Shown here piece after piece: positions 1-22,186 of a DNA stretch of 64,000 nucleotides. This DNA is from Octopus sinensis. Taxonomy: Eukaryota. Location: the NCBI RefSeq assembly GCF_006345805.1, contig NC_043002.1:73842001-73906000 (forward strand). The letters run 5' to 3'. Numbering within the stretch: the first letter of the stretch is position 1; every line of letters starts with the position of its first letter. The position numbers were made by a program, and so were the translations under genes. The notes under the pieces are model-generated. The model had not been told where the DNA came from. It was given only the letters and a program-made list of their open reading frames with translations, and ran no database searches.

Positions 1-1566
1 ATGCTTAAGAGGGAAGGGGTTGTGCTCTGACAACCCCTCCCCATCCCCTCTGATTCTCCTGTCATCACACACTTTTGACATATTACCTTGAGGACATGCT
101 CTGACCCCTTATCATCATCATCATCATCATCTTATCTCTCCTCCACACACCACTCTACCCATCCATATAACATATCACTGCATCTCTTCCTCCCTTCCTG
201 CTACCCTTATCATTCTCTCTTTCACTAATCTCCTGACACTGCTTTTTCTTTTCTCCTTCCTATTACTACTGGGCCATCTTATCACATCACTATACCCACA
301 TGTATAACTCGGGATGCACTGCATTACTCCCCCATATTCTACCCCCTATCTCTTTCTCACACACACACTAACCCACAAACACTCATTTTCACTTTCCTTC
401 TCTATCAGTCTTTGTTAGTTGCTCCCCTACCATTCTCTCAACAATAAACCTGTGTAATTCCAATGCAATCTGTCTTAGATCCTGATGAACAGCATAACCT
501 ATGCTGGCATAACAGAAGGACTGAACCACTCCATCACTGGTTTCACCTACTCAACCCACTCCATTATTACCTCCTCATACTAATACCTGACATTACTAAC
601 CCCTTCCCCTTTCGTCTGTTTCTATTATACCCACTCCAACACTGTTCTCTTTGTTATTCTCTCCATCACCATCCTCTCATAATAAATCTGTTCAATCCAG
701 TACAGAGGCTCTTTCACACTGCAAGCTGCAAGGTGACCCTCAACATTGATGGTGCCACAAAAATCACCCATTACACACTGTAAAGGATTGGTAATTGATT
801 CAAGCTGCGACAAGGCAAGGCTTGAGAGTGTTCATTTGTCTTGCTAACAGCAATTCCACCTCTATAGTGCTGGTGCCATGAAAAACAGAGTTAGTACACT
901 CTGTAAAATAGTTAGTATTATGCTAAAACTGAGACATTGGAGCAAGATGCGATCCTCTAACCCAGTGAATCCTGTCAAACCATTCTACCCATACAAGCAT
1001 AGAAGATGGATGGTTGATGATGTGGTGGAAGAGATAAAAGAAACTTGCAATATTGATCTTACACTCTGAAGTCAAACAATCTACTCTAAATACTATTTGC
1101 ATGAGGAACAGAGACATTTTAAAATCCATGTTGGAACAGACTGGCTTGGTTATATGACAATTAGTAATTATTGCTGTGTAAAAGTCAATTAATTAAATCT
1201 ATAAATTAAACATCTATGATGTTAAGGTGCTGAACTAGAGATCATATGATCATACTTCACACCTTAACATAAACACTGCACTGAATTACTGGGAAGTAAC
1301 TATAACTGTCTCATAATTTCTGGCTGACAGCAGTATCACTTCTACTTCAAAGTTCAATTTTGAAGTGGGATGGGCAACTAAATGAAAAATAATTAATTGC
1401 ATCTAACTGAAAAATAATTGATTTCTATCTAAAAAAAGTTATGTTAGTTTCTCAACTCATTTCTTACTCACAAGTTAACATTTTACACTGAATAGAGTCA
1501 TACATAACATTTTCATCTCTAGTAGCTAAGGATTTTATGCACAATTACATACAATTTTAAAATTTT

Positions 1567-1770
1567 AAAATTCCTGGCTTTGGGTAAAATAAAATACAGG
1601 AAAATCAGTTAATTATTTTATTCAACACATTCGCCTCTCAGATTCACACACTTATTGCAGCAGTCTTTCAGTTTTCCTAAGCCCTGTAAAAGAACTTGGA
1701 AGGTTAGGCCTTCAACCAGGTCTTTTGCAATACCCTTAAAGCCAGGAACTTTTCAATCACGCACCTCGTA
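1567..1770. mobile_element. Mariner-like MITE, left end eroded
   Basis: aaaattcctggcttt (1567) is inverted to aaagccaggaactttt (1738); right end ...cacctcgta is mariner-style; abuts the Tc1. Confidence 0.6.
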
Positions 1771-1774
1771 TATA

Positions 1775-3364
1775 CAGTAGCGGCCATAATATAAGGACCA
1801 GTAAGAACAAGCGTATTGAAATATTTATTATAGAAGATTAACAAAACGTTCAGACTAGATATTTTACACATATTTAGATATATCTAATATCTATCTTTCA
1901 TGAAAATTTCAATTGAATGGAATAAATATTTTGTAAGTTATGAGGAAATAAATAATCTTCCAAAGTGCAACAACAAAACGTTAAGGGTCACTTAGAAAAA
2001 CCATGAAAAATGGAACAAGAACAAAAAAGAAAAACCCTTACTACTAATATTTTCTGACCATCCCTTTACTATCAATGACCTTCTGACATCTGTTACCACA
2101 GGACTGAATTAATTTCTTGCAAAATGATGAAGTAATATTGTTCCATTTGTTTTTCAATAATTCCAAGAGTTCATCTTGGTTCTCTGGATTTCTCCTTTGT
2201 GCCTCATCGCCAATAATCTTCCAAACGTTTTCTTTAGGGTTGAGATCGAGACTTTGAGGTGGCCAGCCCATGAGATCAACCCCTTCATCACTCAAACAAT
2301 CTTCGACTCTTTTCGCAGTGTGACAGGGAGCATTGTCCTGCATGAAGATAGGAGGTTGAACTGACGAGGGTCAGAGATATAGATGGGCATGCTGTCTGAG
2401 AATCTGTTTGCAGATTTCAGCATTGACAGTACCTTGTAGGGGAATAAATCGACCAGCAGCAGAGAACACTCCCCATACCATTACACTGCCTCCTCCATGT
2501 TCCACAGTCTTCTTCAAACATGCACAAGATAACTTTTTGCCACTTCTTCGCCAGACATACATCCTGCCATCAGAACCAATCACACTGAACTTTGATTAAT
2601 TGCTAAAATAAATCTGTGACCACTGTTCTTCTGTCCAAATGACATGCTCATGAGCAAAACGAAGACAGGCTCTTTGATTCTTCTTGGAGATCAGAGGTTT
2701 CTTTGCCGGTGCCTGAGCAAGCAACCTAGTACCTTGTAATCCCTGAGAAACTGTTTTGCTTGATACATTGACGTCAGAAGTGGAGCTAAACTCACGGGAT
2801 ATCTCAGCAACATTCTTAAACCTATCCCTTGTGACATTCTAACCATAATATGATTCTGTTTTACGTCTATCGGTTTGGGGTTTAGTGTCTGTCGAGTCTG
2901 ATGACTTGAAATGAACTACAATTCATTGTAGACCTTCCTACAGTAATTGCAATCACAGAATTTGACTTGTCCTCTTGGTGAAGGCACACAATCCTTTGTT
3001 TCCTATCACAGGACACTGGTTGTCTCTCACAAGCTGCCATGTTGACAGCTGAATGTTCCAATAATGTAAGATCATAAGAAGTAACTGCTTGCTCATTAAC
3101 AGTCTTCTAAACAACAAACACCTCGGTTAGTAGTTCATTCCTTCTAAGTGACCCTTAACTTTTGGCCACTGCAATTTGGAAGATTGTTTATTTCCTCATA
3201 ACTTACGAAATATTTATTCCATTCACTTGAAATTTTCATGAAAGATAGATATTAGATATATCTAAATATGTGTAAAATATCTAGTCTCAACGTTTTGTTA
3301 ATTCTCTATAATAACTATTTCAATAAACTTGTTCTTACTGGCCCTTATTTTATGGCTGCTACTG
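1775..3364 (-). mobile_element. Full-length decayed Tc1-family transposon (DD34E) with ~223-bp IR/DR-type TIRs
   Basis: TIRs 1775-1997 and 3142-3364 (CAGTAGC...); TA on the left, TG on the right; transposase motifs HGGGSVMVWG, QDNAPCH and WPPQSLDLNPKENVW with 34 residues between D and E. Confidence 0.95.
2044..3040 (-). pseudogene. Tc1 transposase pseudogene (frameshifts and stops)
   Basis: ATG at 3040; broken into ORFs 2371..2583 and 2044..2343; first catalytic motif FSDESK decayed to FSN*SK. Confidence 0.9.
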
Positions 3365-3366
3365 TG

Positions 3367-3370
<4 letters not shown>

Positions 3371-3410
<40 letters not shown>
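3371..3410. repeat. (TA)20 microsatellite at the Tc1 right end
   Basis: Direct reading. Confidence 0.95.
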
Positions 3411-3419
<9 letters not shown>

Positions 3420-5265
3420 ACACCAATGCACACAGACATCTCATATTTTACTTTTTATTCTGAGAGAGAAAGAAATGCTTCCAACAGAGGTTACATTACT
3501 CAAATCATTCTTCTATCTCTGAATCTTAATCATTCTTCTAAACAGTAGATCTTATCTCCAAATTCCAAGATTCTTACCCTATAGTTTTCAGCTGATTTTA
3601 AAATTTAATAAGGAATCTTCAATATTCAATTATAAGACAAGTTGTAAAACTGATACAGCTGATATTCTCTTTGACAAAAAAAAAAAAAAAAAGAGAAACT
3701 CACATGAATCTAGGTTTCAATTTTACCAATAAAATCCTCATAATCAACAGTGAGATGTCTTATTTGTTGGAACCAGATTCCAAAAATTTACACACAATTA
3801 TTTTTCTCAGATGTGAAATATTTATAAAAATAGACCATAGTAATAATGTAAAAGCCCAACAAACTGCTAAAGCTAAACCAAATTTGTTTAATGCAAGGCT
3901 GTTTCTTCCATGAATCAAACTCTTGTTCATGTCATAAACTTAATATGCCTTGTTATATCCACACTAATATATTATTTAATATAGTTTGTGTGTGTGTGTT
4001 TGTGTGTGCACTGTTATGCAACCAGTGTTACACAAAACTAGCCAATCAAATGTGGCTCTAAGGAAAATAACCTCACAGCCTAATTTGTTGAGAAATTTTA
4101 AAATCCTGAAACCAAAATAAACAATTAGGAACATTTTTCTTTAAACAAAAATGAGAAAAACTAATTAACATTTGTAAAAACCTAATTAGTTTTCTTTCCA
4201 ATCATATAAAATACAGTAAAAGAAAAAAAAATCTCAAAACTAATTAAAAGCTATTGGTAGTTTGTGTAAAATTTCCATAAAGCACAATTCTATAAAATTA
4301 GAGCATAAAATGAGACAGAAAATCCTTGAGGAAAAGATTATGTGTTACTATGAATAGCCATAAATGTTAGGAAGAAAAACATCAGAAAAAAATGGAACTT
4401 GAAATTATTTTGAGATCAATTAGATCAGTGTTCAATTTTAGAAACTATTGTATATAATTTGTATTAGCTTTCACACAATCAAACTCTCTTTCGTAAATAT
4501 TTGAACTGACTAGTACTTTGTCAAAACTATGTTTGTGGCAGCATTGTCAATCAATGAACTTTGCAGTAAAAACTTTTAGATATAAGTAGTGTCACACACA
4601 CAAAGACTATGAAGTATTTATGAAGAATAGAAGTTGAAAACAAAAGTGGCTGATATGTTCATATAAGAGTTCAGTTTTCTATGAAAACATAACCTCAAAG
4701 CGCATAGTAAATAGTTTGAAGGAATTTTTATTGGAGCATAGATATAGATATTTGAGGTTGCAGACAAGAAAAAATACAGTAATAAAAGGAAATCTTTTGC
4801 ATATGCAATAGCCCATCTTAAAAACTTACAGCTTAAGAAAAATAACAATAGATTGCACTCTCTTTAGAATGATTTGTTTGAAAGAATTTAGTGTAGACAG
4901 AATAATGTCCAGAAGCAAGACTACTATCTTCTTTCTTTTATTAGGATTTAAAATTGTTAAATATTATCTTGTTTGAAATACTTAATCCATAAAAATATTC
5001 AGGCCAACTTGACTGAAAAATCTCAACTATATATTCTCTTGAACAAACTTCACACTTAGAGAAATGAGAAATTAATCTTTGATGGTCAAAAGCCATTAGA
5101 CATGAAAGCAAAAGAAATCCATGTCAGTGCCAAGCAAGCCTGTTCTGAAAAGAGGGCAAAAAAGAAACAACAGTAATTATCAGTAATATTACAAAACAAT
5201 ACGTTGCCCAGTAATTCATAAATATTAAAATCAATGAACTTTGTAGCAAAATCTTTTAGATTTAA

Positions 5266-5476
5266 CCCTTTTGATACCAACTTGCCTAAAACTGCCTCTG
5301 ACTCTGTCTTGTTTTCAAAAGTTCTAAATTAAAATCTTCCACCAAACCTTACCCATAATTTATGTTCCTAACACTAGCTTAATGATAACTAAGTTATTTT
5401 ACTAAATCCTTTGTTTTATTTAAAATTAATTGAAAGAAACACAGAACATCTCAACAGAAATATGGTAACAAAAGGG
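5266..5476. mobile_element. piggyBac-like MITE (211 bp)
   Basis: TTAA on both sides; TIRs CCCTTTTGATACCA / TGGTAACAAAAGGG (13/14 match). Confidence 0.85.
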
Positions 5477-6193
5477 TTAAGTAGTAATTTATAAAAATAT
5501 AAACAAACTAGTTTCTGTTATTTAAGCACTTAAAATACTAAGAAACTAATTCTTGCTATCATCTGATCGTTCTAAAAATAGCCATAATCCCTTTCTCTTG
5601 TGAAAAGTTTTTAAAAAAATGAAAAACCAATAAAACAACACATATTTTGAAGTAAAACCAATAGAGAAATCTAATATCAAAGAAGCTTGAAGATATCAAG
5701 ACAGCTGCTAAGTGTAACAGATAAGATTAGAGGATTTTAAAATATTTTCAATTTAGACGTGAAAATAAATCTATACAATTTATATTAATAAAAATTCTAT
5801 ATCAATTAAACTCAACTTTTAACAAGAATTCGATTAATATGATATTTTACAATTGAAAATGTCATATTAAATTTTATGGTGTGAAGAGACTTGTTCTGTA
5901 GAAAACTACAAGCATATAAAAGAAAAGAAAAAGACAAGCAAAAAATAAAATAATTTGGGGGAGAAATGGAAACAAAGCAACAGATATAAAAAATAAAAAT
6001 ACAAGACATTTTATCTGTGATAGTAAATTGAATGCTTTCAGTCGTTTCTCCACTCAGCAGCCTGATATATATATATATATGGAGAGAGCAATATATATAT
6101 ATATTTATATTTGCAACAATATAAAAGAGAAAGCAGTAAAAGCAAAAGTTGAAAAATAGATGTAGTAGTTGGCATAGAGGCCTGCATACCTAC

Positions 6194-6238
6194 CTCATAA
6201 CTCTCAGCTGGCACTGAAGATAGCTCTTTATCACCACC
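6194..6238 (-). CDS. APBA1: 45-nt exon, phase 0-0 (GGDKELSSVPAESYE), PTB loop insert
   Basis: ttctccttcattctcctggccag|GGTGGT...TATGAG|gtaggt; open frame; an in-frame upstream acceptor gives exon start 6268. Confidence 0.75.
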
Positions 6239-9200
6239 CTGGCCAGGAGAATGAAGGAGAATAATAGGCTAGAGAATAACCAGTAATAATAGACAAAAGT
6301 TGATGTTTCTCATCTAGACCAGAATGCCCATGGTCAGGTAATCAATTTGAACTATCAACTAAAAGATAGCCCGGTTTCAAGAAAAACAATAGGTTAGCTA
6401 ATAGTTTGTTTAATTGCTAACCTAAATATTTAATACATACCTTACTAGGCATTCAGAATTACAAAATAATTTGAAAAGTAACAAATTCCTTGAAAATAAT
6501 TTATTTTTGTGGGAGAAGTTACATAAATTATTAAAATAGTATATTTTATCACTATTTTAATAGTCTATGAAGGTATTCTGAGTGAAGAATGAATTATCAG
6601 TTGTATGCATAAAAATTACATATTGATAGTCCGACAGTTTTGCAAAGCAGCTTCATATGAATGTCTCTAAAATATATTTAACTGAGTTCTGATGCAAATA
6701 AAAGCAGTTGCAATTTAATAGTTGGTATAAAACAAAAAAATAATCTGTTACTACAACTGAAGGGATAATTGATAGAACTAAAAAGCTCAGAACCTGACTA
6801 AGCTTATATTGAGGTAATAAACAAATTTAAAAAAAGAAGAAATGTTTAATAACATGAAAAATTAAAATAAACCATTTAACTGCAATATTATATGAAAGAA
6901 AAGACAAGATTTGCAAGAAGCAAATTGACAAAAATTTGTCATCATTCATTTAGTTTCTTGAATGTATGACTGAGATAAAGAAGCAGGGTATATGTTCTTT
7001 CCTAATTAAAAGACATAAAAACTTACAGACTTAATATGAGGATCCTAACATTTTCATCTTTAATTAATGAAGATTCTATTGTCAACTGATAAACTATGAA
7101 TTCATGAAATAAGCTTAAAACAAATTTTTAAGCATGAGACTTAATGAGATCAACAGTAAAAATATTAGCAAACAATGTCAGTAATAATTACTTAGGTTTT
7201 AGGAGTCAAATTTGTAAGGTTTCAGAACTGGAAAGCAAAGTAATGTGTTTGCAAAGCAATATTGATTAGAACTGGAAAGTTGGTCACAGACAGATTCATT
7301 GAAAATCTGTTGCCTAAACAGGACATCCACTACAAACTGTATTAATAAGGGGAAACTTATAAAATTGTTTTGCTTTCTCTTTATTTGTCTATTTGTATCC
7401 TCAGTTTGAGGTTTTAAATTATCAAAGTCATAAGAATGTCATTAGCTGGGTTGCCTTGTTCAATTCATTCTGGCTCTCTGTGTTAAAATCTTATTGAGAT
7501 CAGTTTTACCTTTCATCCTTTCAATATTGATAAATAAAAGTAATAATTCAATATTGAGCTGATTCTTATTTCTCTTTGTCAATTTCACTCTTTCTCTGAC
7601 AGCACATGTAATTCAAAGATCCTCCTTGTCATAGACTAACATGCTGATCTGACATGAGAATTATAGTAACGATATATATGTCTATGGAATACTCTATCAC
7701 TTGCAAGTTTATTTCACAAATAAGAATGCAGTTGATTAAACAACACTGAATGCTCATTGTCAAAAGAATTCACCATCCTATGCATATGTTTAGAGAAGTA
7801 AAACAGCCGAGTTAATAAGAGATGACTTTTGAGGAAATATCAAATCTCAAGTGTGTGTGTACATAAGTTAAGTGAGATGATGGTGCTTCACATTTTCTAT
7901 TTTTATTATTATTACATACTGTATTTTGTGAACAACAATGTTATTGGTTTCCAACGGGTTTCCAGCAAGCCATTCATTGGTTCGCTGCACACCTTAACTT
8001 AACCAAGAACATAATTCAAGTGAAACTGAAAACCTATTCTTTAATATTAATCATATTGTTGATATCAATAAGATGAGTGTTATGAGAACATTTAATTTTA
8101 TATTTAAATGTACTTTCTGCTACTGAACAAAGTTGGAACAATACTTATTTTGACAGCCAGGTAAATGGAACCAAGTATTGTTAGGGGCTTTGTATAAAAT
8201 TAGCAACAAGGAATGGAAACTGGACAGTAAAGTTTGAATCTATTACTATGAAGTCAATAATTTTACATCTAAATATCACAGCCATTGTGCTCTGTCTTTT
8301 CTGTTTTGTCAATAGACTCAACAATATTTTCTTTGCATTTAGTCAGAGCAGCTGTTATTTTTTATTTTTTTTTTTACATTAGGTACTGTGGTTAATGTGC
8401 CTATGTATAACATACACTAAATATAACAAACTTTTAATTTACAATGAATTTTATTTCAGCCATATTTAAAATTGATTAAAAGTAAAAGCCTTGTACATAT
8501 TACAAAACCTACAAATAATGGCCTTCAACTTTTTGTGCTAGTACAACTTTAGGATAGCAATTATTTCTTTATTCTTTATGTATAATTTTGACTTTTTATA
8601 TAGGCACAAGGCCATGAATTTTAAGGTTATAGAAGATTAGGTCAAATGCACTACTTGACAAGTACATGTTATATCAAATGAAATTTGAACTGAGAACATA
8701 CGGGGGGGGGGGGCAGAGGGAGAGAGAGAGAGAGAGAGATCTGTCGTGAGCCCTATGACTCAAAGTCAGAGCTTAACCAGTTTCCCATGGCTTATAAATG
8801 CACGAGATTACAACACCACCACTCCCTGAATGAGATGCTGGTCCACCACAGGGTTAACTTTTCAGCTATTGTTTGAACTCATTTACAACTGAGTGGACTG
8901 GAGCAAGGTGAAATGAAATGCATCACCTGGTCAGAAAATCAAAACCATGGACTTGATTGAGTACACACCCTAACCACCAGGCCATGCACTTTCACCCCTA
9001 ATCACTAGGCCTTGCACTTTCACAGAACATAATTGAATGCAATTAAATACCTTAAAGTATTTAATCTATCGCACAACAGAATCTATTAGCCAGTGCTTTC
9101 AGTAACCTTTAGTGGTAGTTTATAAATTTCCAGCAAGACTAGAGTTTTAAGGAAAGCAGCATAGTAGATTTTATCAACTCAAAGGGATGAAAAGTGAAGT

Positions 9201-10194
9201 TGACCTTGAAGAGAATTGAATTCATTACATACAGAGAAATAAATAAATGCAACAAGACATTAAGTTAAGAATTATAACTAATGATTTCTAAATACTAATA
9301 ATAAAATAGTATGCAACTTTCCTAAAAATTATTAGGCATGAAATTTAAGATTTAGTGGGAGATGGAAAACAGAAAATTGTCATGCTCATGCCTTTTCCAA
9401 GAACAATATCAATGGTAAGTAAAAGAAAATCTCCAAAATGGAAATCAAAACTAGGCTATGTGGTTAGGTTGCCAGATACATGCCATGGTGATGATACTAC
9501 TACAGAATTATTGAAGGGAGGGGAAAAGGTCATGCTGTTCAATTACAGAAAAGAAACAAAAAGCTCTTTTCTCTCAGTATTGAGCAGAACATGTAATGAA
9601 AAGGGTTGTATTAAAGAGTGAAATGATAAAGGGAAATAAAAGAAGAAAACTAACAACACATTAGGAAATTAAGAAAGGTACCACATATTCTAAAAATATG
9701 TGAATCTTAAAAGTCACACTGAGAGTTAAACAGCGAACAGAACCTTGGTAAAACTCTTTTGAAAAAATAAAAGAGGTCCATTAATAAATAATGGACACTT
9801 AATTTAAGAACATATATATGGCTATCAATTACCAAATAGTAATAGAATTGACTCTTAGAGAAAATTTATGGATTATAAAGGATAAACCAATTTTACCATA
9901 TTCTTGGTAAAATTTCACAAAATGTTAATGCAAAAGAGAATTTTTGACTTGAGTATGAAAGTTCCTCACAAATATATATCTTAGATTTAAGGCTTCTTTG
10001 TTTAGAATATTTCCAATACTAGTCATGAAGTAGTTAATAATTTTAGAAACATGTTCACTTGAAAACACTTGTAATGATAATCTATAAGTGTGTGTACAGA
10101 TTGAAAAAAAGAGTACAGAGAAAGAGAGTATTATAAGTGTTAGAGGAATATATTATGATTGGCTTTGATAATTATAAGCATTTGCAACAGTAAA

Positions 10195-11583
10195 CACTGG
10201 TCAACAAAGAATTTCCATTGGGGAGTATATTTAAGTGAATCAGAAAGCACTTTTGAAGCTATCTTCAGTTTTTCAGAAGAACAAAGTTTTTGAGATTAGA
10301 CCAATTGTATTTTTTTACAGATATATTTTGAAATATTTTCTATTCTTTAGAATAGTCAATCAGACCATTACCATTTAATCAACATTCCTCATAAATGTAA
10401 AAATCATCCAGAACACAGTTAAACTATCACTAGAGATCTATATATATACTAGATATAGTTTGGTTGCTGTATAGGAGACCAAGAAAAGCAGTGGGTACCA
10501 CTTAAAATCTGCACTGTTTGATCATGTGGACTATTTGAATGATTAAAAAAAAAAAATTAAGAAACAATCAATGCTTTGCCACAGACAATGGAGTCATGTA
10601 ACAAAAGATCATTGTTAAATGCAACTGGCCAATAAGGTCACCATGTGTCCCATGAATAAACAGTTTCAAGTCTGTCCTCTTAGTTGACCCCAAGAAGATA
10701 TTTTTACCATGTATCCATATTATATTTAATTTAATGAAAGATTTTGTAAAAACAGTGGGTAAAATCAATTCAAAAGGATTTGAATACCATTCCAAGGAAA
10801 ATTTCCAAATGTGAGTGCAAAGAGTGGACTTTTGTGGGGCTGCAGATCAATGGGGTTTTAAAAAGTACTGAATTTGAACAAATGCTCAAGACACTGGAAT
10901 TACCAGCTTGGAAAGCTTTTGAGTGGTTATATGAAAACTTTCTGAGAAATAAATTCCCTGGATATAGAAGTGTGATTGAGAAACTCCTTGACACCTATAA
11001 AGAAATGGGTGTAATCATCATCATCATTTAACATCCATTTTCCATTCTGGCATGGGCGGGATAGTTTGACAGGGGCTGGTTAGGCAGAAGACAGCACCAG
11101 GCTTCACTGTCTGCTTTGGCAAGGTTTTTACAACTAAATGCCCTTTCTAACACCAACCACCTTACATTTCTAATAGTCTCATTAAATTTCTTTCAAGAAA
11201 ATCTTGATGCCATTAGCAAAGAGTAAGAAGAATGATTCCATCAATATAGTTATGTAATAGAAACTTGATAGCAGGGATTTTGGAATGGAGGCATTATAAT
11301 GTATATTCTCCACAAACATGTGTAGTGTATTTAATTGAATCTACCATATAAAAGTAAGGTTAAAATTAATTATGTTTGAATTAATCAACTGTAGGCTGTT
11401 TCAGTTCAAGTGATATACAAATTCTGCATAAAATGCTATTTAAAATACTGTAAATATTTTTAAAAAATGAGATAAAAGAAACTGTTAAAGTCCAAAAATG
11501 CTAAAGAAAGACTTAGAATTCCTGCCAAGGATGCAATTGGATGCATCTCTGAAGAAAAAATAGTTTATTTTTGTTGACCAGTG
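10195..11583 (+). mobile_element. Internally deleted, decayed DNA transposon, probably CMC-Chapaev3
   Basis: Perfect 14-bp TIRs CACTGGTCAACAAA; remnants LVDPKKIFLP..LMKDFVK, FVGLQI, AWKAF..NFL, LLDTYKEMG, FQENLDAIS..FHQ; family name assigned from memory of these motifs. Confidence 0.75.
11014..11165 (-). mobile_element. RTE-tail SINE fragment nested in the Chapaev-like transposase
   Basis: (ATC)n-tttaacatccattttcca..catggg is the reverse complement of the RTE 3' tail at 21340-21399; interrupts the transposase after KEMG. Confidence 0.8.
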
Positions 11584-14537
11584 TTTGCGAAGATATAACA
11601 AGTACCTTTGATATTTATTCAATCAAAGGGGATCATATGAATGAAAAACATGTATCAGTATGAAATATACATAAAAATTCATTAAATGACAGACAATATA
11701 TTTCTCAATTTCTCACTTATTCTTAAATAAGTTAAAAAGTGAGATACTGACATTGTGCTTAAACAAAAAGTTATAATAAAATAATGTTCTAGAACTACAA
11801 TATATGAAATACATAAAATCACTGAGATCAAAGTGAATAGAAAAGCAAAACAAACAAAAAAAAATAAATAAATAAAGCTAAAATACATCACAATGAATTT
11901 TAGGAAAATAATGAGACTGGTGCCATATGAATGCTGAAATTATACTAATTAAAGGCTGTTTAAATGAAGTGCATGATTTTGACGCTGAGATAATGATGTG
12001 AAGACATTTTTGTGCCAATAAATAAATAAATAAATAAAACATGATGATATTCCAGAGTTTTGAACAAATAAATAAAATTAGTTTTGCTGAAAAATTTCAA
12101 ATGTGAATATATGCATGCAAAATAATATAAAGACTACACATATTTAGTGAACAGATAATGCTGACAAAAGAAGACCGTAAAGAAGACACTTCAAAACTTG
12201 ACACATTCTTACTATATAAAACATTCTCACATATAAAAAAAATTGAAATGCTATCTAAATGAAAATTAAGGACAACAGGCCTTATAGACAGATAAAATAA
12301 AAGATTAGTAGCCAATTCTTTCATCATACTACAACATCAAATCTTGGTAATAGTTTACAAAATTTATTACTTAAAAGTTAAAAAGTATCAAGTAAAAGTG
12401 AAGAAAATACTATAAAAATGCATTTACTATTTTAGGCTAAATATATAGACAGAAAAAATGTATGTATGTGAATGGATGGGCAAATATACATACATATGAG
12501 AGGACACATCGATTGTGCCCATTGCTGCAGGAAAGATACAATCTACATCAACAACAACTGCCTCAAAATGTCACACTACCTTTTCATGAGACATGACAGT
12601 GTAGCCAAAAATATTTACAATGCTATTACATGAAGGATTGTCTTGATGCTCATACAAAAAGCACACCAGACCCATGAATCCGCACCTTTAAAAATAAGGA
12701 ATACTGTGGAGCAATCCAATAGAAACAACAAACTTATGCAAAAACAACAGACCTCACACTGTTTCAGGGGACAGGGAACAACTATCATAATTTATAAGTT
12801 AGTTGCCCATAGAGATCAATGTCTCATCTAAAGTTGTAGAAAAGATCATCAATGAGGAACTGATGCAGAACTTACAACTTTTGTATCCTGGATCTAAATG
12901 TCTTCCTGTAATTATCATAGATGCATTGGATAATGAAACAACAGATTTGAAATAGAAAATAGAAGCCCAAAAGTGCTAGAACAAAGCAAACTCACTCACA
13001 CCCTTCAAATCCAATTAATTAGTGGATACAGTGAAGATGTGCAAAACATTCTAAAGATTCTTCATTTAAATTTCTTGGAATAAACATATATACACAATCT
13101 TATATGTACATATAGTAAACACACATACACACACATCCAGATATACACCCACATATATGCATTTATTAACTCATTCTCATATTCACAAATTGCAGGATGT
13201 ATCTTGACTCAAAGAATCCTTGTCACTTTTCTAGTAACTGACTTCAATTCTGCACAGAAAAATATACATAGATACACACAAATTAGTATGTATACATAAT
13301 ACATACACACATGATCGCTTAGCTGGTGCTTTATAAAATACAATGAAAGAACCATATTTCTGGGTTAGAAACAGGCTTTTTCCTGTATTGGTAATAAATT
13401 TAAATTATATAGCCAGAAAAACAACAGAACACACATACATTACACACACACATACAAAATGAATAAGCAATAATGCATTTCCTGAATAAATGAGAAAAAA
13501 TAACAAAGATCAACAACTAGTAGTGTTTCACAATATGAAGGTTTCCAGTTTGAATGTTATGATAAACAGATAAAACTTCAGTTACTCATACTTACAGATG
13601 TATAAACAGATATGAGTTTGATAGAAAAGAAAAAGTAACTTTCCTTCACTAAAATTGCCATAGAAATATTTTTTACATGACCCTAAACACTTCACTTATT
13701 TAGCAAAATAAAATATTTTAGTGTATTGAGGAAATACATATCAAAATGGTAATTTCAGAAGAATGCAATATGTTTACAACAAGTATAAAACAACTGATTT
13801 CTTGCATAAGCACAACTTCTGATTTATGCATAAAGTCATCTGATTTGTGCATAAGTATATAAATGTAAAAAATTTAAATTCAGAATCTAAACAGAGGAGA
13901 GAATGCATCTTATGTTCCAAACAACTATACAAGTATAAAGTGATGGAAAATTAAAACCAGGAATGGAATGTTTGTTTCAAGCATTTTTAAGATGACCTTA
14001 AAATTTACAAACAACTAATTAAGACTAAGTGAAAATTCAACAGAAATAATATTTCACACACACACAACAAATAATTCAGAGACTCAAATGAAATGATTCT
14101 AAATGATAAGAATATCTTCCTTTTTTTTTTTCCTGTCCAGAGTCAATTTAAAATCAAATTAAAATTTTCAAAATATATTGGAAGACTTAAAGGTAGTGTT
14201 TATATTATAGTATAATAAAAATTGAAGGTGGCAGGATTCCAACAAGGTAATGCTAAGTTATCAGTTACAACGCAAATATATTTGAATTTTTTCTTTTTGT
14301 ATTTTTATTAATTATATTAAAATAAATATTAACTGTATTCTCCAAAAAAAAAAAAAAGAAAAAAAAAAGGAAGATTCTTCTACATTCAAATAGCTTTAAA
14401 TGAAAAATACTGAATATTGCTTTCTTAAATTACAGCGAGTAAAGAAATAAATAGCAAGTAGTAACTAAATATATGGGTGAGATGTTTTACAACTATTGTA
14501 CAGACAATATCAAAAAAGGAAGAATGAGATAACTCAC

Positions 14538-14543
14538 CGAAGC
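14538..14543 (-). CDS. APBA1: 6-nt microexon GCTTCG (Ala-Ser), phase 0-0, inside the PTB domain
   Basis: Long pyrimidine tract tttcctccttttctccctcacttctttcatattacatttttag, 6 nt, then consensus donor gtgagt. Confidence 0.7.
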
Positions 14544-14961
14544 CTAAAAATGTAATATGAAAGAAGTGAGGGAGAAAAGGAGGAAATGTTAAAATGCATT
14601 AAATTAAAAAGAGTTCATCAGGATAAATAAAACTTAAACATATACACACATAGCACAAGATTGCATCTAATTCACACTCACTCTCTCACACATAAACATA
14701 TATACATATATATGGACAATATACATTTTTAGATGGAAATACATACACCTAAGATATATGATTTTATGAAAAATATATATACATATATCTTAATACAAGA
14801 TATATGTAAGTTAAAAAGAATATAATAAATGCACAAACAAATGGAAAACAGACAGAGAAGGTTGCCAAATCCTTATCAGTTATTGGCCAAAAGATCAATG
14901 CAATTTCGCACCTATGCAACATATCTTTATATAAAACATAGACACAGGGATATATCTTTAT

Positions 14962-14964
<3 letters not shown>

Positions 14965-15053
<89 letters not shown>
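14965..15053. repeat. Compound microsatellite (AT)n(AG)n
   Basis: Direct reading. Confidence 0.95.
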
Positions 15054-15057
<4 letters not shown>

Positions 15058-15104
15058 GGTGGGGAGCAAATATATAAAAAAATACATATCATATACATAT
15101 CAAA

Positions 15105-15640
15105 TATATGCTGTCATCCCAGTGAAACGACTGCAGTAAAAGTATTTAGCTAGTAGTAAGCCAGAGTACCTAGCATTCATTGCCAGTGTGCTAGAGAAAG
15201 CCTTTTTACAGGATTCCATGCTTTGTAAACTGGTGATCACTAAAGAAGCTAGGAATAGATGAGGGTAGTACAAGCCATATACAGGGATGCCATCATCAAG
15301 GTAAGAGTCAACAAGAACAGCAATAAATTTAGCATGCAGGTAAGAGTCCACCAGGGCTCAGTTTTCATTTCTTTCTATTTGTCATAATCCTCCAAGCTAC
15401 AGCAGAGGAGTCAGAAACCAGTTGTCCATAGGAACTCCTGTATGCTATTGACCTAGTTCTCATATCTTGAATCTGTAGCAGAATTAGAAGAAATTCCAGA
15501 CATGGAGGCAAAACCTGGAATTGTAACCTCAAATGAAGCAAAGATTAACATATTAGTAAGAAAGAAGACAGGACTCTGCTACCATCAGGGAAATGGCCCT
15601 GTTTGATATGCAGAAATGGGCATGATAGGAATTCCATGAA
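15105..15640 (+). mobile_element. Old RTE reverse-transcriptase fragment
   Basis: Decayed motifs RLQ*KYLA..LAF..LEKAF, VHQGSV, CP*ELLYA.DLV, GKWPC.ICR. Confidence 0.8.
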
Positions 15641-16264
15641 GTATAAACTATGAACTCACAAGAAGTATAGTAAAATCACAGGTACAATAATAGAGAAGGT
15701 AGACTTTGTATACAGCAGATGTGCAGGAGCATTAAACACAATAAGCACACAGAAAATTAATTCTCTCAAATACTAAGAAAATTCTCTGGAAGTAGATCTA
15801 CTAGGATCTCCTGGCACTTTTTTACCCATCTTTTATCATCCAAACTACATGTCCAAACTCATCTGGTCGCCATTCTTGCACAGTATGACTGATTGCTCTT
15901 ATACTTAGTTTTCCTCAACTCGTTTATACCGCACCATTCATCATAATCATCATTTAATGTCCTCTTTCCATTCTGGCATGGGTTGGACAGTTTGATAGTA
16001 ACTAGCAAGTCAAAAGACTGCACCAAACTGTCTGCTTTGGCACAGTTTCTAGGGTTGGATGCCCATCCTAATGCCAACCACTTTACAGAGTGTACTGAAC
16101 ATTTTTTATATGGTCCCAGCAGCAGCAAGGTCACTGAGTAACTAGCAAGACTGGACCCCTCAACTGGCAGTGTGCAAGGTGATGAAAGTTTACAGTATGA
16201 ACAGAAGGTCAGATATAGGTGTCTTAACATTATTCAGACAGTAGAGTATACTTGCTTCATTTCT

Positions 16265-16387
16265 GTCCAAACTTGCACATCCTCAGCACTAAGTCCTCAT
16301 GTCTCCCTACAATGCAGCATTGCACTTTGTACACAAGCTCCATACAATCTACCCTTCACCAAAAAAGAGACTTCTCATGTCACCAGC

Positions 16388-16424
<37 letters not shown>

Positions 16425-16520
16425 GCTTCCTGAACTTTTTCCACTCTGTTCTTACTCTAGCTACTATGCTTGCTGAGCATCCTCTTTCACTGCCAGTTAG
16501 GTTACCAATATAGCAGAAGC
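16265..16520 (-). mobile_element. Old RTE ORF fragment
   Basis: Minus strand reads ARVRTEWKKFRKL..LLVT..VKGRLYGACV..AMLH, homologous to the 20107 ORF. Confidence 0.8.
16388..16423. repeat. (AAT)12 microsatellite inside an RTE fragment
   Basis: Direct reading. Confidence 0.95.
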
Positions 16521-17973
16521 TATTGACTACCTTTATAGAGTTTCCTAGCATTGAAAAGAATTTATCTTGCTACATAGATACATGAATATATATAAATCTA
16601 AAATAAAGATAATATATTTAGTGATTTTCAAGAAAAGAATTAATTAAAACAGTTTTGGACTTCTGAATCAGTCCTGATATGAAAGTAATCTTCAAAGTGT
16701 GACTACAAGCTTAAATCTATATCCTTTCGTAATTATATTTCAAATATCGTTAATGATGATAACGATGATAAAACTTTTCAGTAAAATCATAAGAACACAT
16801 ACTGACGAGGTAAAAACACATAAAACATGATAATGAAATATAACTTATATGAACTTTTTCATTAAGTGGCATACATCAGAGAAGTCTGCAACAAACAGAT
16901 GAACATTTAATGTGCAAATAGTTTGTTGGAAGAGATTTCATTGTTACCATAAGAGGTTTAAGTAATTATGTAAGCCTTTATTAGGTAAAATTCATTCTTT
17001 ATTATTTCTGTATATAAAATAATCTGCACATTTTTCAGTAATGAAGTAATCTATTTATTTATTTCATACATAATTAATTAAATTGCATAAAAAGCTAAAA
17101 AATAAAACCAACTAAAAACTAAAAAAAAACTAATGATATGGTAAATGATCAATGAAGCCAGTGTTGTTAATATACCTGTTACAAACCAAAATTTATTCCT
17201 GAAAGCAAATATTACTTGTAAATGCTGTTGTACTTTTTACACACACACACACAAAACCCTTTTAAGATAGGAAAATCTCAAAATTATACTATAATATATT
17301 TTTAAATGGGTTTTTTTCTGAAAAATACATTTATATTAAAAGATTATACATTTTAGATGCTCTCAAAATAATGCATATGCCATAATGTCAGTAAGTATCA
17401 AGAAAGCTGGATAACAATTTCAATTCATTTTAACTAAAAGTAGTAAATACATTGTGAAATGGTTAACTGGTTATGATACTGAGATACAAATACAAGAATT
17501 ATCAATTCCAAGTTGAAACTAGAATGCATTTGTATTTTATAATAGTGTTTGTTAATAGAATACCTGTGAAATAAAACAAAAATATGAACTAAGGGAAATA
17601 ACTGTAGTGGAACGATGGCATGGATTTACATATATTTGTTAAAAGTTATATTTTGAATGATGCAGCAAAAACTGTTTACCATTTTGCCTTTTAGTTGGAG
17701 AAAAAGTAAAAAGCCAAAAGTAATTCTCAGCAGAGCTCAAAGGGAGGGGGAGATAATTTAAAGAAATTTATCTCGTTTCAGTCACTGGGTACTGACCAGA
17801 TAGGGTTTGGGCAAAACAAATCAACCCCAGTACTTATCTATTAAGTCTAGTACTCATTCTATCAGTATCTTCTACCAAACCACTAAGTTATGGGAATATA
17901 AAAAATCCAACACTGGTTGTCAGGAGATGGCAGGGGCCAAACATAAAGACACACACACACATAATTATATATA

Positions 17974-18930
17974 TCATCATCATTGTTTAACATCCATCTT
18001 CCATGCATGCATGCATGCATGAGCAGGACGGCTCACAGAAGCTGGCCATGTAGAAAAACTACCCTATACTACTGTCTGCTTTGACAAGGCTTTTATAGTC
18101 GGATGCCCTTCCTAACACCAACCACTTTTTAGAGTGGACTCAGTGCTTTTTATGTCGTACTAGCACAGGTGAGGTTAGTTTTCGCATGATTTTTACAGCT
18201 GGATGCCCCTCCAAATAACCACTTTACAGTGTGGACTGCATGCTTTTTATGTGGCACCAGCACTGGCAGGGTCACCAAGTAGCTTGCAAGACCAGGAATC
18301 ATGAGAGGGGCAGGTGCATTTGAGGAGGGGAACCCATGTCAGAGGATGAAATGTTAGAGAGTGACAGAGAAATAAGTGTCTTGCTATAGAGAAGGTACAT
18401 GGTTACCCAGGGAGAGACAGAAAGAGAGTGACCAAGAATGAGGGCAGATATATATATGCTGCTAGAGAGGAGATATGTGACTACCCAGCCAGAGGGAAGA
18501 GCAAGGGTAAGAAAGAAAGAGAGAGTAGGAAATAGCAAAAATGTAAGAGAGAAAGGAAGTGCCAGTGTATACTCACAAGTAACAAGGATCAAAGCGTAGA
18601 TGTGATGGTAAAGAAAAGGGAAGTACGAAGGTAGTAATATACACAGTCAAGTGTTGCCAAGAAGGCGCAAGTAGGGAGTGGGGATTGTAGTGACTGGCGA
18701 AAACCTGAGTAGAGGGCAGGGAAGGGGATTGAAAGACAATCATAGCTTATGAAGAGAAAATCTATATATAACACACATACATATAATAGGCTTCTTTTCA
18801 CTTTTCATCAACCAAATCTATTTACAAGGCTTTGGTCAACCTGAGGCTATAGCAGGAGATACTTGTCCAAGATACCACACAGTGGGAGTGAACATGAAAC
18901 GATGAGGTATGGAAGCAAACTTCTTACACA
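17974..18930 (-). mobile_element. Composite SINE: tRNA-like head, CT-rich spacer, RTE tail
   Basis: Head 18787-18930, purine-rich (+ strand) spacer ~18300-18760, tail 17974-18295 homologous to the RTE 3' UTR. Confidence 0.6.
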
Positions 18931-20075
18931 GTATGCTTGAGAATTTTGGATTTGTCAGTAAACAAAGAGATGGTAATGGGTACTGTAGGCTAACAAAGAT
19001 TGGATTTTGAAGAGAGCATGTAAAGTAATGCATTCGTGAAATTAATATCCAATTTCTTAAAATTAAATCTCTTCTGAGGAAGTTGCTTACAATAACCGCT
19101 GATTTTTCTTTTCTTTCTCTTACTAAAAAGTAAATCTATCGCAGTTCATATTATTGGCCCAAATGAGTTATTTCCCTTGGTTCATATTGTGTAATTATGC
19201 AAGCTTAGTGGCTAAAACATTTTTTTTTCCACTTGTAAAAAAAAAAAGTTTCTCAACTCATCGACCAGGTGCAAATCAGCTACATTTCTAATAAAATGGA
19301 AACATGTTCCTTGCCTGCTAACAAGGATCAGATTTTCTATTAACCCTTAAACTGAGAAATTAAACTTCATGGTTATTCCTGTAAGACTTAAATATCTACC
19401 AAAACATTCAAGTTGGTATTTTCTGCAAGTTGTGTTACCGCAATGAACTTGACATATGAAAAACAAGAAAAAGTTCCAACAGAAGATAGACTGGTAAATG
19501 AAACCACTTTCTGTAGTTAAGGGTAACAAAATTTTGCATGTGTATTTCTGATTTCTGCAGTGAATAAATATTTGTTGTGAAATTATCAACTTTTTTCATT
19601 GAGATTCACTTACAACTACAACTAGGTTTTTGTTGTCTTTTACCAATTATAATGCAAATTTTAAATATTTGAGAATTATTAGCAAAGTCAATATGAAAAT
19701 TCCTCTAATCAAAACAAAATTTCACTTACTTAAACCATATATGAGATCAGTAAGGGAAGCACTTCACTTTACTCCTTTATTATTATTTTTATATATATAT
19801 ATATCAATGCAGTGCACTAGCACACTCTGAATATATTGAAATGTGTAGAAAATATTTGGAGTTAACCTAGAATGGGTTTACAAAACAAAGGGAAACAACT
19901 CGGTCATCTAGCTTTGATGATTACCGGAATACCTTTTGTAGATACTATTTTACAAAAAGTATTTCTCTTTGTCAAATCCCATTTAATGCTTAAAGCTTTT
20001 ACATGTCTTAAAAACAGTATATTTTCAGCAAAATAATATATGGAACTAATAATAATGTATATATGAATAATATAT

Positions 20076-21399
20076 GGAAGGCTAACTAGGAAGGCTAACT
20101 AGGAAGATGGTTTTTGTATGTGGCAGATGCTCAGGAACAATAAACACTGAAAATGCTCTGAGACCAACTTCCGTCACTTTCCAGGGAGAAAAACTAGAAA
20201 TAGTTGATAGTTTCCGTTACCTAGGTGACCAAGTCAGCAGCGGGGGCGGGTGTGCTGAAAGTGTAACTGCTAGAGTAAGAATAGCTTGGGCAAAGTTCAG
20301 AGAGCTCTTACCTCTGCTGGTGACAAAAGGCCTCTCGCACAGAGTGAAAGGCAGACTGTATGATGCGTGTGTACGAACAGCCATGCTACATGGCAGTGAA
20401 ACATGGGCTGTGACTGCTGAGGATATGCGTAAGCTCGCTAGAAATGAAGCCAGTATGCTCCGATGGATGTGTAATGCCGGTACTCACACTCGGCAGAGTG
20501 TAAGTACCTTGAGAGAAAAGCTGGACCTAAGAAGCATCAGTTGTGGTGTGCAAGAGAGACGTTTGCGCTGGTATGGTCATGTGGCGAGAATGGATGAAGA
20601 TAGTTGTGTGAAAAAGTGCCACACCCTAGCGGTTGAGGGAACCTGTGGAAGAGGCAGACCCAGGAAAAGCTGGGACGAGGTGGTGAAGCACGACCTTCGA
20701 ACTTTAGGTCTCACTGAGGAAATGACTAGAGACCGAGACCTCTGGAAGTGTGCTGTGCGCGAGAAGACCCGGCAGGACAAGTGAGTCCACAACCCGTGGC
20801 CTTCTACATGGGATGGAGCCAGCCTACGTATGCATACCTTCCCTTCTTGGGACACAAAACTCTACTTGTGAAGACGTGTTGAGGCAAGTGAGGATCAGAA
20901 TCGAAATCGATCAATGGAAATTGCGGATGTGCTACCAGTGCCGGTGGCATGTCGAAACTCTGCTTGTGAAGACCCATTGAGGCAAGTGAGGATCAGAATC
21001 GAAATCGATCAATGGAAATCGATCAATGGAAATTGCAGATGTGTTACCAGTGCCGGTGGCATGTAAGAGAACTTTCCGTTTCGCGACCGTTGCCAGCACC
21101 GCCCCGTTTCGTGTCCGTTGCCAGCCTCGCCTGGCCCTCGTGCCGGTGGCACATAAAAAGCACCATCCGTTCGTGGCCGTTTGCCAGCTCTGTCTGGCAC
21201 CAGTGCGGGTGGCACGTAAAAAGCACCCACTACACTCACGGAGTGGTTGGCGTTAGGAAGGGCATCCAGCCGTAGAAACACTGCCAGATTTGACTGGGCC
21301 TGATGAAGCCTTCTGGCTTCACAGACCCCAGTAGAACCGTCCAACCCATGCTAGCATGGAAAACGGACGCTAAATGATGATGATGATGATGATGATGAT
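20076..21399 (+). mobile_element. Young 5'-truncated RTE-clade LINE (ORF C-terminus, 3' UTR, (GAT)n tail)
   Basis: Uninterrupted 225-aa ORF 20107..20784 with FRYLG, ARVRIAWAKFREL, MLHGSETW, MLRWM, RRLRWYGHV, GRGRPRKSW; CpG-rich; ends in (GAT)n. Confidence 0.95.
20107..20784 (+). pseudogene. RTE ORF C-terminal fragment (post-RT region, with CxxC)
   Basis: Typical RTE C-terminal motifs; endonuclease and RT core absent because of 5' truncation. Confidence 0.9.
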
Positions 21400-22034
21400 G
21401 GATCTAAGCCAAACATTTTGTCATCCTGATTCAAAATACTCTTGTAGCACAGCCTTTCATTTATACCTTATCATAATATAATGAAATAGAGGATGTCTTA
21501 AAAAGGCAACAATGGGAATAAAGTTTCAGACTAGCCCTTCATTCAACGTAAACCCATACAGTATAGGTATTGGTTATATGACTGGTGTATGAACAATATA
21601 TACACCTATAATGATCTTGTTCAACAATAAATACACAGCAGCAGGATGGTTGAAATACTAAAGTTTAATAACTTAAAAGAATCACAAGATATTCCAAAGC
21701 CTGTCAAATACTGTAAAAATAGGAAATAGGGAAGTACTACATCAGGTAAGTAATAAAAAATATATCTTGAATAAGTCCCACACCTTGAATCCTATTGATA
21801 TTCATTTATCAAATAGCCTTGTTTATAATTAGAGTAATGTATTTATCCCTGGAGCAAAAAAATAATGTAGCACCCATAAAGATCATTTGTGTGTGTGTGT
21901 GTGTGTGGTGTGTGTGTGTGTAAAACACTTGGACACCATTTTCTAGTGAATTTAAAAATCTAAATAAAATAGAAAAATAATATGTAAATAAAATAACTTC
22001 TAACATAAAAGAAATTTATGTCAAGTATCTTCAC

Positions 22035-22186
22035 CTTAATTCGTCCAACAGCTTCTTGTGCTTGTATCATTCTCATTGGTTTTGATGGTTGCCCTTCAGA
22101 TATTAATTGTGTAGAACCAAGGTAACGTGCTCGAAATAACACACCTTCTATCAATACTGCAGGGTTGTCCGGATCATTTATGCAAA
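22035..22186 (-). CDS. APBA1: First PTB-domain exon, 152 nt, phase 1-0 (CINDPDNPAVLIEGVLFRARYLGSTQLISEGQPSKPMRMIQAQEAVGRIK)
   Basis: Recognisable X11/Mint PTB N-terminus (F-x-A-x-YLGSTQL; RMxQAQEAV); acceptor tatttggcag (in-frame alternative gives exon start 22156), donor AAG|GTGAAG. Confidence 0.95.

Follow-up and report, generated by a model that had tools for sequence, protein, structure and literature searches.

What does a PTB domain gain when its coding sequence is interrupted by a long interval that holds small, in-frame exons? The question arises from a 64,000-nt stretch of the Octopus sinensis genome (hereafter the window), which contains part of the X11/Mint (APBA/lin-10) adaptor gene on the minus strand. 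The assignment is based on an X11-type PTB sequence, on a Pfam PID and two PDZ stretches in the proteins P0128 and P0124, and on a comparison with PDB chains in which the best matches of the PTB are Mint1 and Mint2. The exons of the gene map exactly to the genome. Constitutive exon A (152 nt, 22035..22186, minus strand) spans the PTB from its first strand to the end of its first long helix and closes with ...AVGRIK at a phase-0 donor. It matches positions 1-36 of Pfam PF00640 as well as X11/Mint PDB chains, and is identical to residues 907-957 of RefSeq isoform X1. A second acceptor lies inside this exon; its use drops 10 aa, and RefSeq isoforms X4/X8 lack those 10 aa.

The continuation of the domain, APEGENQPSTEVDLF, was not found within the window. 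The interval occupies 1..22034 (minus strand), runs past the window edge and totals 40,317 nt; the PTB resumes at G000:C6:73823717, in constitutive exon B (87 nt, APEGENQPSTEVDLF..., G000:C6:73823631-73823717, minus strand, outside the window). The initial annotation, which had described a PTB exon ending in ...AVGRIK with no continuation in the remaining sequence, was therefore correct on this point. The weight that it gave to the size of the interval is less warranted: a later PTB intron measures 46 kb and is free of cassettes in the 18 RefSeq models compared, so that 40 kb is unremarkable for this gene. Transposon remnants occur in the A-B intron.

Three cassette exons interrupt the interval, in the order 6, 45 and 36 nt. 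The 6-nt microexon (GCTTCG, Ala-Ser or AS, 14538..14543, minus strand) and the 45-nt exon (15 aa, net charge -3, 6194..6238, minus strand) lie inside the window. The 36-nt exon (12 aa, TLGTLHFGKRYQ, net charge +2, G000:C6:73839998-73840033, minus strand) lies 2 kb past its edge, beyond the view of the initial annotation. All three are phase 0, divisible by three, free of stops and bounded by canonical AG/GT ends, and each is used in only part of the transcripts.

Four runs (presumed RNA, 'RNA?') were mapped to positions 6120-6420, and two of them, from two studies, yielded a contig; these contigs are spliced but are not single molecules. Both join exon A to the 6-nt and then the 45-nt exon. 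The contig of run X8 continues into the 36-nt exon (AS+15+12), whereas that of run X2, at depth 38, passes from the 45-nt exon directly to exon B (AS+15, then APEGE). In run X8 the exon-A contig ends 6 nt beyond the donor, at the end of the microexon, which together with the 30-nt overlaps of a 104-nt contig would, by assembly geometry, give a second path in the same run, AS+12. Runs X3 and X14 gave no contig on the 45-nt exon, which does not prove its absence from them, and no exon joint was found among the 15 of 386 joints listed (19.4 kb, four runs), where repeats dominate. Run X5 gave a contig of 1,421 nt.

The RefSeq isoforms, whose combinations are computed models, carry an insert of 29 aa in 13 of 18 O. 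sinensis cases and of 27, 15, 14, 2 and 0 aa in one case each; the microexon is present in 15 of the 18. A form with the 12-aa cassette only is found in an O. vulgaris model (P0117) and in none of the 18. Models of both O. sinensis and O. bimaculoides include the 45-nt exon, and forms that skip the 6- or the 45-nt exon occur both among RefSeq models and among the cephalopod-type proteins derived from Logan. The AS+15 form (1,300 aa) would fit RefSeq isoform X5 by length; isoforms X5 and X14 lie outside the 15 of 23 cluster members that were listed.

These results bear out the claim that frame-neutral cassettes can be stacked at a single site of the PTB. The locus is not confined to a single isoform and the cassettes are not consistently left out, as both the contigs and RefSeq carry varied inserts. 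The proposed alternative 75-nt form of the 45-nt exon found no support. The 30 nt that it would add at the 5' end (6239..6268, minus strand) are where the shorter exon has its polypyrimidine tract and acceptor. Splicing enters at 6238 in both contigs, and the extension occurs in 0 of 18 O. sinensis RefSeq isoforms. We found no contig over 6240-6268, which is not proof of absence. With a third cassette and no support for the 75-nt form, the possible inserts become 0, 2, 12, 14, 15, 17, 27 and 29 aa, in place of the 0, 2, 15, 17, 25 and 27 listed originally: 25 is lost, 12, 14 and 29 are added, and 27 is the sum of 15 and 12. When the 40.3-kb intron was scanned with strict splice-site criteria, five candidates emerged; 30 block shuffles gave 0.87 on average and at most 3. 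Just two of the five are supported exons and the scan passed over the 36-nt exon, so it is the RNA and protein evidence, not the scan, that carries the claim. The three further candidates (two at window position 12254, one past the window edge) are absent from all models seen.

The acceptor region of the microexon spans 14544..14632 (minus strand). Its AG-free zone extends over 87 nt, versus 28-55 nt at the five other acceptors; the last 40 nt before the exon are 87.5% pyrimidine, a branch-like TTAAC (not CTAAY) lies at -49, and the nearest TGC is at -55. Hallmarks of eMIC-dependent microexons include a long AG exclusion zone, a long pyrimidine tract, a strong branch point and a UGC near the acceptor (PMC8797185). 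The corresponding size range of 3-27 nt accommodates the 6-nt exon and is exceeded by the 36- and 45-nt exons. The long AG-free zone goes with these hallmarks, but no TGC lies nearer than -55. By analogy with the fly X11L exon, inclusion of the octopus microexon may be neuronal and eMIC/Srrm234-dependent.

Across species, the junction is without an insert in 85 of the 147 proteins parsed. The AS dipeptide is found in 9 of 39 taxon groups and is retained in three classes of molluscs; the 12-aa motif is found in 13 of 39. The seven variants of the latter, from cephalopods, gastropods, bivalves and the nemertean Lineus, share 8 of 12 invariant positions (T-L-G-x-L-H-F-G-x-x-F/Y-Q). A third cassette (12 of 39 groups) differs between lineages in sequence, length and place: in octopus and pond snails it comes before the 12-aa cassette, in oysters after it. 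Relatives of the octopus 15-aa cassette were seen only in cephalopod-type proteins, among them a 14-aa relative in the Logan proteins P0183 and P0184. Proteins of Aedes, Anopheles, Phlebotomus and Bombyx carry a two-residue AL at the junction. The fly X11L gene has a 6-nt exon, GCTTTG (DmeEX0007022), one base different from the octopus GCTTCG, and supplementary data list it as eMIC-dependent and pan-neuronal (PMC8797185, PMC8042270). This fly exon is probably the same junction exon as the insect AL insert, and the 6-nt exon may be a protostome-old neural microexon.

The junction has a counterpart in vertebrates. The octopus inserts fall exactly where exon 6 of human Mint1 is inserted (IK|APEGE); PDB 1AQC has 11 extra residues there, Mint2 chains have 12 and 4DBB has none, and a mass-spectrometry peptide of Mint1-826 reads IK|APEGESQPMT (PMC3667844). 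In the same report, which used two-hybrid, pulldown and FRET assays, the human Mint1 PTB without exon 6 bound Rab6A/B, both wild type and Q72L, and with exon 6 it did not; APP was pulled down, in a qualitative assay, with or without the exon, and only the short form accumulated at the Golgi. As consulted, the report gives the effect of the deletion and no mapping of the Rab6 surface. An invertebrate X11 PTB also binds Rab6, as the PTB of C. elegans LIN-10 pulls down RAB-6.2-GTP (PMC3255976), and Rab6 is present in O. sinensis (P0320). The vertebrate inserts are basic and, by eye, have no motif in common with the octopus cassettes, so that any effect is transferred by position only.

On balance, we consider it likely that the three phase-0 cassettes (2, 15 and 12 aa), alone or stacked after the first long PTB helix, constitute a partner and localisation switch. 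This reading draws on what is observed at the locus, namely the exons and their order, the two stacked junction chains, the junction shared with Mint1 exon 6 and the conservation across species. By analogy with Mint1, an insert-free octopus PTB would bind Rab6-GTP and reside at the Golgi, and longer inserts would block the Rab6 surface, perhaps with an effect graded by cassette combination. The groove for NPxY cargo would remain usable with inserts in place. Two residues, as in the AS insert, might be too few to obstruct anything.

The initial annotation had instead proposed that stepwise changes in loop length adjust autoinhibition or the binding of phospholipids or NPxY peptides, which we consider improbable. 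The Mint1 PTB does bind phosphoinositides and insert into membranes (PMC3564535), NUMB exon 3 alters lipid binding and plasma-membrane localisation (PMC11889595), and a 6-nt microexon of APBB1 raises Kat5 binding and, to a lesser extent, APP binding (PMC8911335). However, the membrane-inserting leucines mapped in Mint1 belong to another loop and, on our reading of the alignment, fall inside exon A; the 15-aa cassette is acidic; and the autoinhibiting helix lies C-terminal of the PTB, according to the title of 4DBB. The persistence of APP binding with and without the human exon argues against an NPxY effect, although a qualitative pulldown leaves room for tuning. Because the exon at this same junction abolishes Rab6-GTP binding and Golgi localisation and spares APP, a switch of partner and localisation is the likelier reading, ahead of a length code for lipid or NPxY binding. 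A code of pure length also fits badly with a 12-aa cassette whose residues are unchanged at 8 of 12 positions between octopus and nemerteans; its sequence therefore matters, and not length alone.

Conservation this strict points to a binding motif that was gained, and not simply to a blocker. As a short linear motif, the 12-aa cassette could bring in a new partner, much as NUMB exon 3 lengthens helix alpha-2 and confers binding to MDM2 and LNX1 (PMC11889595); AS and the variable cassette would be spacers setting its reach, and Rab6 would be secondary. In a model of a snail AS+9+12 isoform (P0351, mean pLDDT 72) the PTB fold is kept, the prolonged helix takes in AS and ends at residue 216, and the 12-aa cassette (residues 220-232) is unplaced, with pLDDT below 50. 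For the complete octopus isoform with all cassettes (P0136, 49 sequences) the predicted fold reached a mean pLDDT of 40 and was set aside. Against a motif, the functional data found at the exact junction in the X11/Mint family show Rab6 loss only (PMC3667844, as consulted), and the loops of NUMB and Mint are equated on a review description and a reading of the model, not on a superposition. A fold search with the P0351 model listed X11/Mint PTB and PDZ chains, with no NUMB chain among the 35 matches listed. We regard motif gain as rather unlikely to be the main account; it is compatible with a partner and localisation switch, and both could hold. Least probable is that a tolerant surface loop in a huge intron has collected in-frame exons largely neutrally, most combinations being without separate function. 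The lineage-specific third cassette, the transposon remnants and the many insert-free proteins would agree with this, but the retention of AS across molluscan classes, the 12-aa cassette in a nemertean, the depth of the AS+15 contig and the neuronal regulation of the fly exon speak against it. Neutrality could still apply to the 45-nt exon alone.

A broader scenario extends the partner and localisation switch, and we put it forward tentatively, as possible rather than probable. The 6-nt exon would be one ancestral protostome neural microexon (Ala-Leu in insects, Ala-Ser in molluscs), at a junction that served as a splice-coded Rab6/Golgi switch and was elaborated separately by vertebrates, insects and lophotrochozoans. 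The last would have gained a hitherto undescribed, conserved motif of 12 residues for binding, together with a spacer specific to the lineage; in octopus neurons the outcome would be a trafficking code with eight states. Neural microexons that different phyla share at one position are reportedly rare: a fly-mouse comparison names four same-position eMIC exons, X11L not among them (PMC8797185), and another study speaks of 'at least two' ancestral cases (bioRxiv 10.64898/2026.09.05.749416). An insect-mollusc match, if true, would add one such case, in a gene whose junction function has been measured in mammals. As the exons are already in RefSeq models, the gain lies in interpretation, not in exon discovery. 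By analogy, the inserts likely decide which partners octopus X11/Mint holds and where in the cell it resides. The locus offers a natural series of eight inserts for asking whether length, charge or sequence blocks Rab6; with it, the Rab6 surface on the Mint PTB could be mapped, which bears on APP and receptor trafficking.

Several known systems resemble this arrangement in part. The 6-nt exon in PTB1 of APBB1/Fe65 is a two-residue neural microexon that tunes binding in an APP-binding adaptor, but it belongs to another gene family, encodes two charged residues and, in the accounts consulted, is not described as stacking (PMC8911335, PMC8304848). NUMB exon 3 is an 11-aa cassette that changes partners and localisation; it lengthens helix alpha-2 and runs on into a flexible loop that points away from the peptide groove, much as the octopus inserts would; unlike the octopus cassettes it is single, basic and chordate-specific, in another PTB family (PMC11889595). 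Drosophila X11L shares an orthologous gene and a 6-nt exon, its position judged from the AL of other insects, but the fly microexon sits in short introns and the octopus one between introns of 7.5 and 8.3 kb, and octopus adds two larger cassettes. Closest is exon 6 of human and mouse Mint1 (APBA1), an in-frame PTB cassette at the same IK|APEGE junction in the orthologous family, whose skipping yields a Rab6-binding, Golgi-located form that still binds APP (PMC3667844). Mint1 has one basic 11-aa exon, whereas octopus has three unrelated cassettes and eight possible forms, known from sequence. The position of the junction is shared, whereas no sequence resemblance to the basic vertebrate exon of 11-12 aa is visible; the octopus cassettes may work like Mint1 exon 6, but they are not that exon.

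A cluster of stackable cassette exons within the PTB of octopus X11/Mint is real and supported by RNA. The exon that opens the PTB and ends in AVGRIK (exon A; window 22186-22035, minus strand; Pfam PF00640 positions 1-36) encodes a product whose nearest PDB matches are Mint1 and Mint2, and the proteins identical across it carry the NCBI name X11/Mint (APBA, lin-10; Octopus sinensis LOC115212775) and a domain set of PTB plus two PDZ. The window spans G000:C6:73842001-73906000. When RefSeq isoform X1 was mapped to it and to a further 80 kb of genomic sequence downstream, the PTB resolved into four constitutive exons across ~90 kb. The initial annotation placed an interval of >22 kb within the domain, and this was confirmed: the continuation APEGENQPSTEVDLF (exon B) starts at G000:C6:73823717 on the same contig, 40,317 nt past exon A and 18.3 kb outside the window edge. 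Between them, on the minus strand, lie three phase-0 exons of 6 nt (encoding AS; window 14543-14538), 45 nt (window 6238-6194) and 36 nt (G000:C6:73840033-73839998, outside the window), the successive gaps from exon A to the continuation being 7.5, 8.3, 8.2 and 16.3 kb. A strict splice-site scan returned 5 candidates versus a mean of 0.87 in 30 shuffles, recovering two of these three cassettes and missing the third.

The size of the interval, stressed initially, is ordinary for this gene, since a later PTB intron is even larger (46 kb, G000:C6:73820711-73774392, outside the window) and is cassette-free in the 18 models compared. At that junction the O. bimaculoides model P0003 has ~47 extra residues, possibly a model artefact. 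The window also holds a 231-aa open frame (20089-20784, plus strand), highly repeated in the sequencing runs and without a Pfam match, which presumably resembles the C-terminus of a LINE reverse transcriptase, and a broken DDE-type transposase remnant with stops (~2100-3150, minus strand), which we take to be Tc1/mariner-like.

Splicing was examined at window 6120-6420 in four runs from four studies, presumed to be RNA and of unrecorded tissue. Two of the four gave one contig each; these are assemblies, not single molecules, and their loose ends were matched to exon sequences by eye. The contig from run X8 (104 nt, depth 3.5) joins exon A to the 6-nt, 45-nt and 36-nt exons, and that from run X2 (453 nt, depth 38.3) joins exon A, the 6-nt and 45-nt exons and exon B. 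Because a separate run X8 contig across exon A ends 6 nt beyond the donor and both ends of the 104-nt contig show 30-nt overlaps, the contig geometry suggests a second path in run X8, AS plus the 12-aa cassette. We compared 18 O. sinensis RefSeq isoforms, whose numbering runs to X20 and which do not include X5 and X14: 13 carry a 29-aa insert, and inserts of 27, 15, 14, 2 and 0 aa occur in a single isoform apiece. Three cassettes allow sums of 0, 2, 12, 14, 15, 17, 27 and 29 aa, and seven of the eight are found in O. sinensis, where models show 0, 2, 14, 15, 27 and 29 aa and contigs show 17 and 29 aa; the 12-aa cassette alone is seen solely in an O. vulgaris model. The proposed stacking of phase-0 cassettes thus holds, in contigs (AS+15+12 and AS+15) and RefSeq models alike. 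The 75-nt form of the 45-nt exon, and with it a 25-aa insert, gains no support: both contigs use the 45-nt acceptor, and the longer form occurs in none of the 18 isoforms.

Other alternative exons are present in the same gene, all on the minus strand. An 18-nt in-frame microexon (PVKKNM; window 38607-38590), upstream of the PTB, is skipped in RefSeq X3, X8, X13 and X17, and exon A has two acceptors (window 22186 versus 22156) that add or remove 10 aa just ahead of the PTB (RefSeq X4, X8), a region likewise short in some other molluscan proteins. RefSeq isoform comparison gave three more in-frame cassettes in the N-terminal half, of 41 aa (window ~62400-62278), 120 aa (~52897-52538) and 25 aa (~45229-45155).

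An initial set of 182 proteins included 147 with both flanks, of which 85 have no insert and 62 carry one. Sorting by source name gave 39 taxon groups, many with a single model, so that blanks carry little weight. AS was found in nine groups (O. sinensis, Haliotis, Crassostrea/Magallana, Pecten, Mizuhopecten, Lymnaea, Biomphalaria and two more) and the 12-aa cassette, with seven variants and 8 of 12 positions invariant, in 13, the nemertean Lineus among them. Twelve groups have an additional lineage-specific cassette, which lies ahead of the 12-aa cassette in cephalopods and in pond snails and behind it in oysters.

Of the 150 representatives from a broader search, 110 could be parsed and 40 could not; among the parsed ones, 85 had no insert, three (Phlebotomus, Aedes, Anopheles) had AL, 11 had vertebrate-type basic inserts (10-13 aa) and the remainder were other. 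In a Bombyx cluster, AL is present in 8 and absent in 7 of the 15 listed among 19 members. Five insect X11 models (P0002, P0370, P0380, P0386 and P0104, from moths and other insects) show a second, divergent PTB first exon beside the usual one, a strand and helix with a basic run; the two look like a mutually exclusive pair at the IK/APEGE junction. One fish APBA1 (P0502, P0522-P0529) has a basic insert and a lone Gln that vary independently of each other at this junction, so a vertebrate model set shows stacking too. In the supplements of PMC8797185 and PMC8042270 a Drosophila X11L 6-nt exon, GCTTTG, is catalogued as both eMIC-dependent and pan-neuronal, alongside a 6-nt exon of X11Lbeta, GCGCTG; we infer that the X11L exon is the AL at IK/APEGE. 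Regulation of the junction is known in mammals and probable in flies. The octopus 6-nt acceptor, with an AG-free zone of 87 nt, 87.5% pyrimidines and no nearby TGC, appears to match the eMIC signature in part.

For function, the cassettes may act as a Rab6/partner and localisation switch, a reading we hold slightly better than even. As described in the accessible parts of PMC3667844, the PTB of Mint1 without exon 6 (IK|APEGESQPMT) binds Rab6-GTP and the protein gathers at the Golgi; with exon 6 it does neither, and both forms bind APP. The LIN-10 PTB of C. elegans binds RAB-6.2-GTP (PMC3255976, in part), and O. sinensis encodes Rab6. The predicted structure of a Biomphalaria isoform with AS+9+12 agrees with crystal structures of X11 PTBs; its PTB core has pLDDT ~90, its helix continues through AS, and its 12-aa cassette is at pLDDT <50. 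In NUMB, exon 3 extends helix alpha-2, adds a flexible loop and alters partners and lipid binding (available text of PMC11889595). Our ratings rest on these lines of evidence and on the position of the vertebrate inserts in PDB chains. Counting against a Rab6 switch are the unrelatedness of the octopus inserts to the basic vertebrate ones, a Rab6 surface left unmapped in the portions of PMC3667844 available, and the place of X11L outside the four same-position fly-mouse eMIC exons in the accessible part of PMC8797185.

Gain of a new motif is a tentative possibility. In PMC10820826, whose available text makes no mention of Rab6, a second, non-NPxY peptide site has been mapped on the PTB. The initial annotation favoured a combinatorial loop-length code (0, 2, 15, 17, 25 or 27 aa) affecting phospholipid or NPxY binding or autoinhibition. 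We consider such tuning by length unlikely: in its favour, lipid binding changes in NUMB; against it, the leucines with which Mint1 inserts into membranes sit in a different loop (PMC3564535, in part). That the cassettes are neutral seems more improbable still.

The octopus cassettes themselves are already present in RefSeq models; what is new is the layout in three tiers in lophotrochozoans, the conservation of the 12-aa motif and the match between insect and mollusc microexons. No paper among the matches listed treats PTB cassettes of molluscan Mint. Cross-species splicing databases of the VastDB type may hold the exon; the accessible text of bioRxiv 10.64898/2026.09.05.749416 lacks 'X11' and 'PTB', and its supplements may list the octopus exon. 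In PDB chains the octopus cassette junction carries 11 aa in Mint1 (1AQC), 12 aa in Mint2 and none in 4DBB. Vertebrate Mint1 and Mint2 share with octopus an in-frame insert at the same junction, but the vertebrate inserts are basic, whereas those of octopus are of unrelated sequence.
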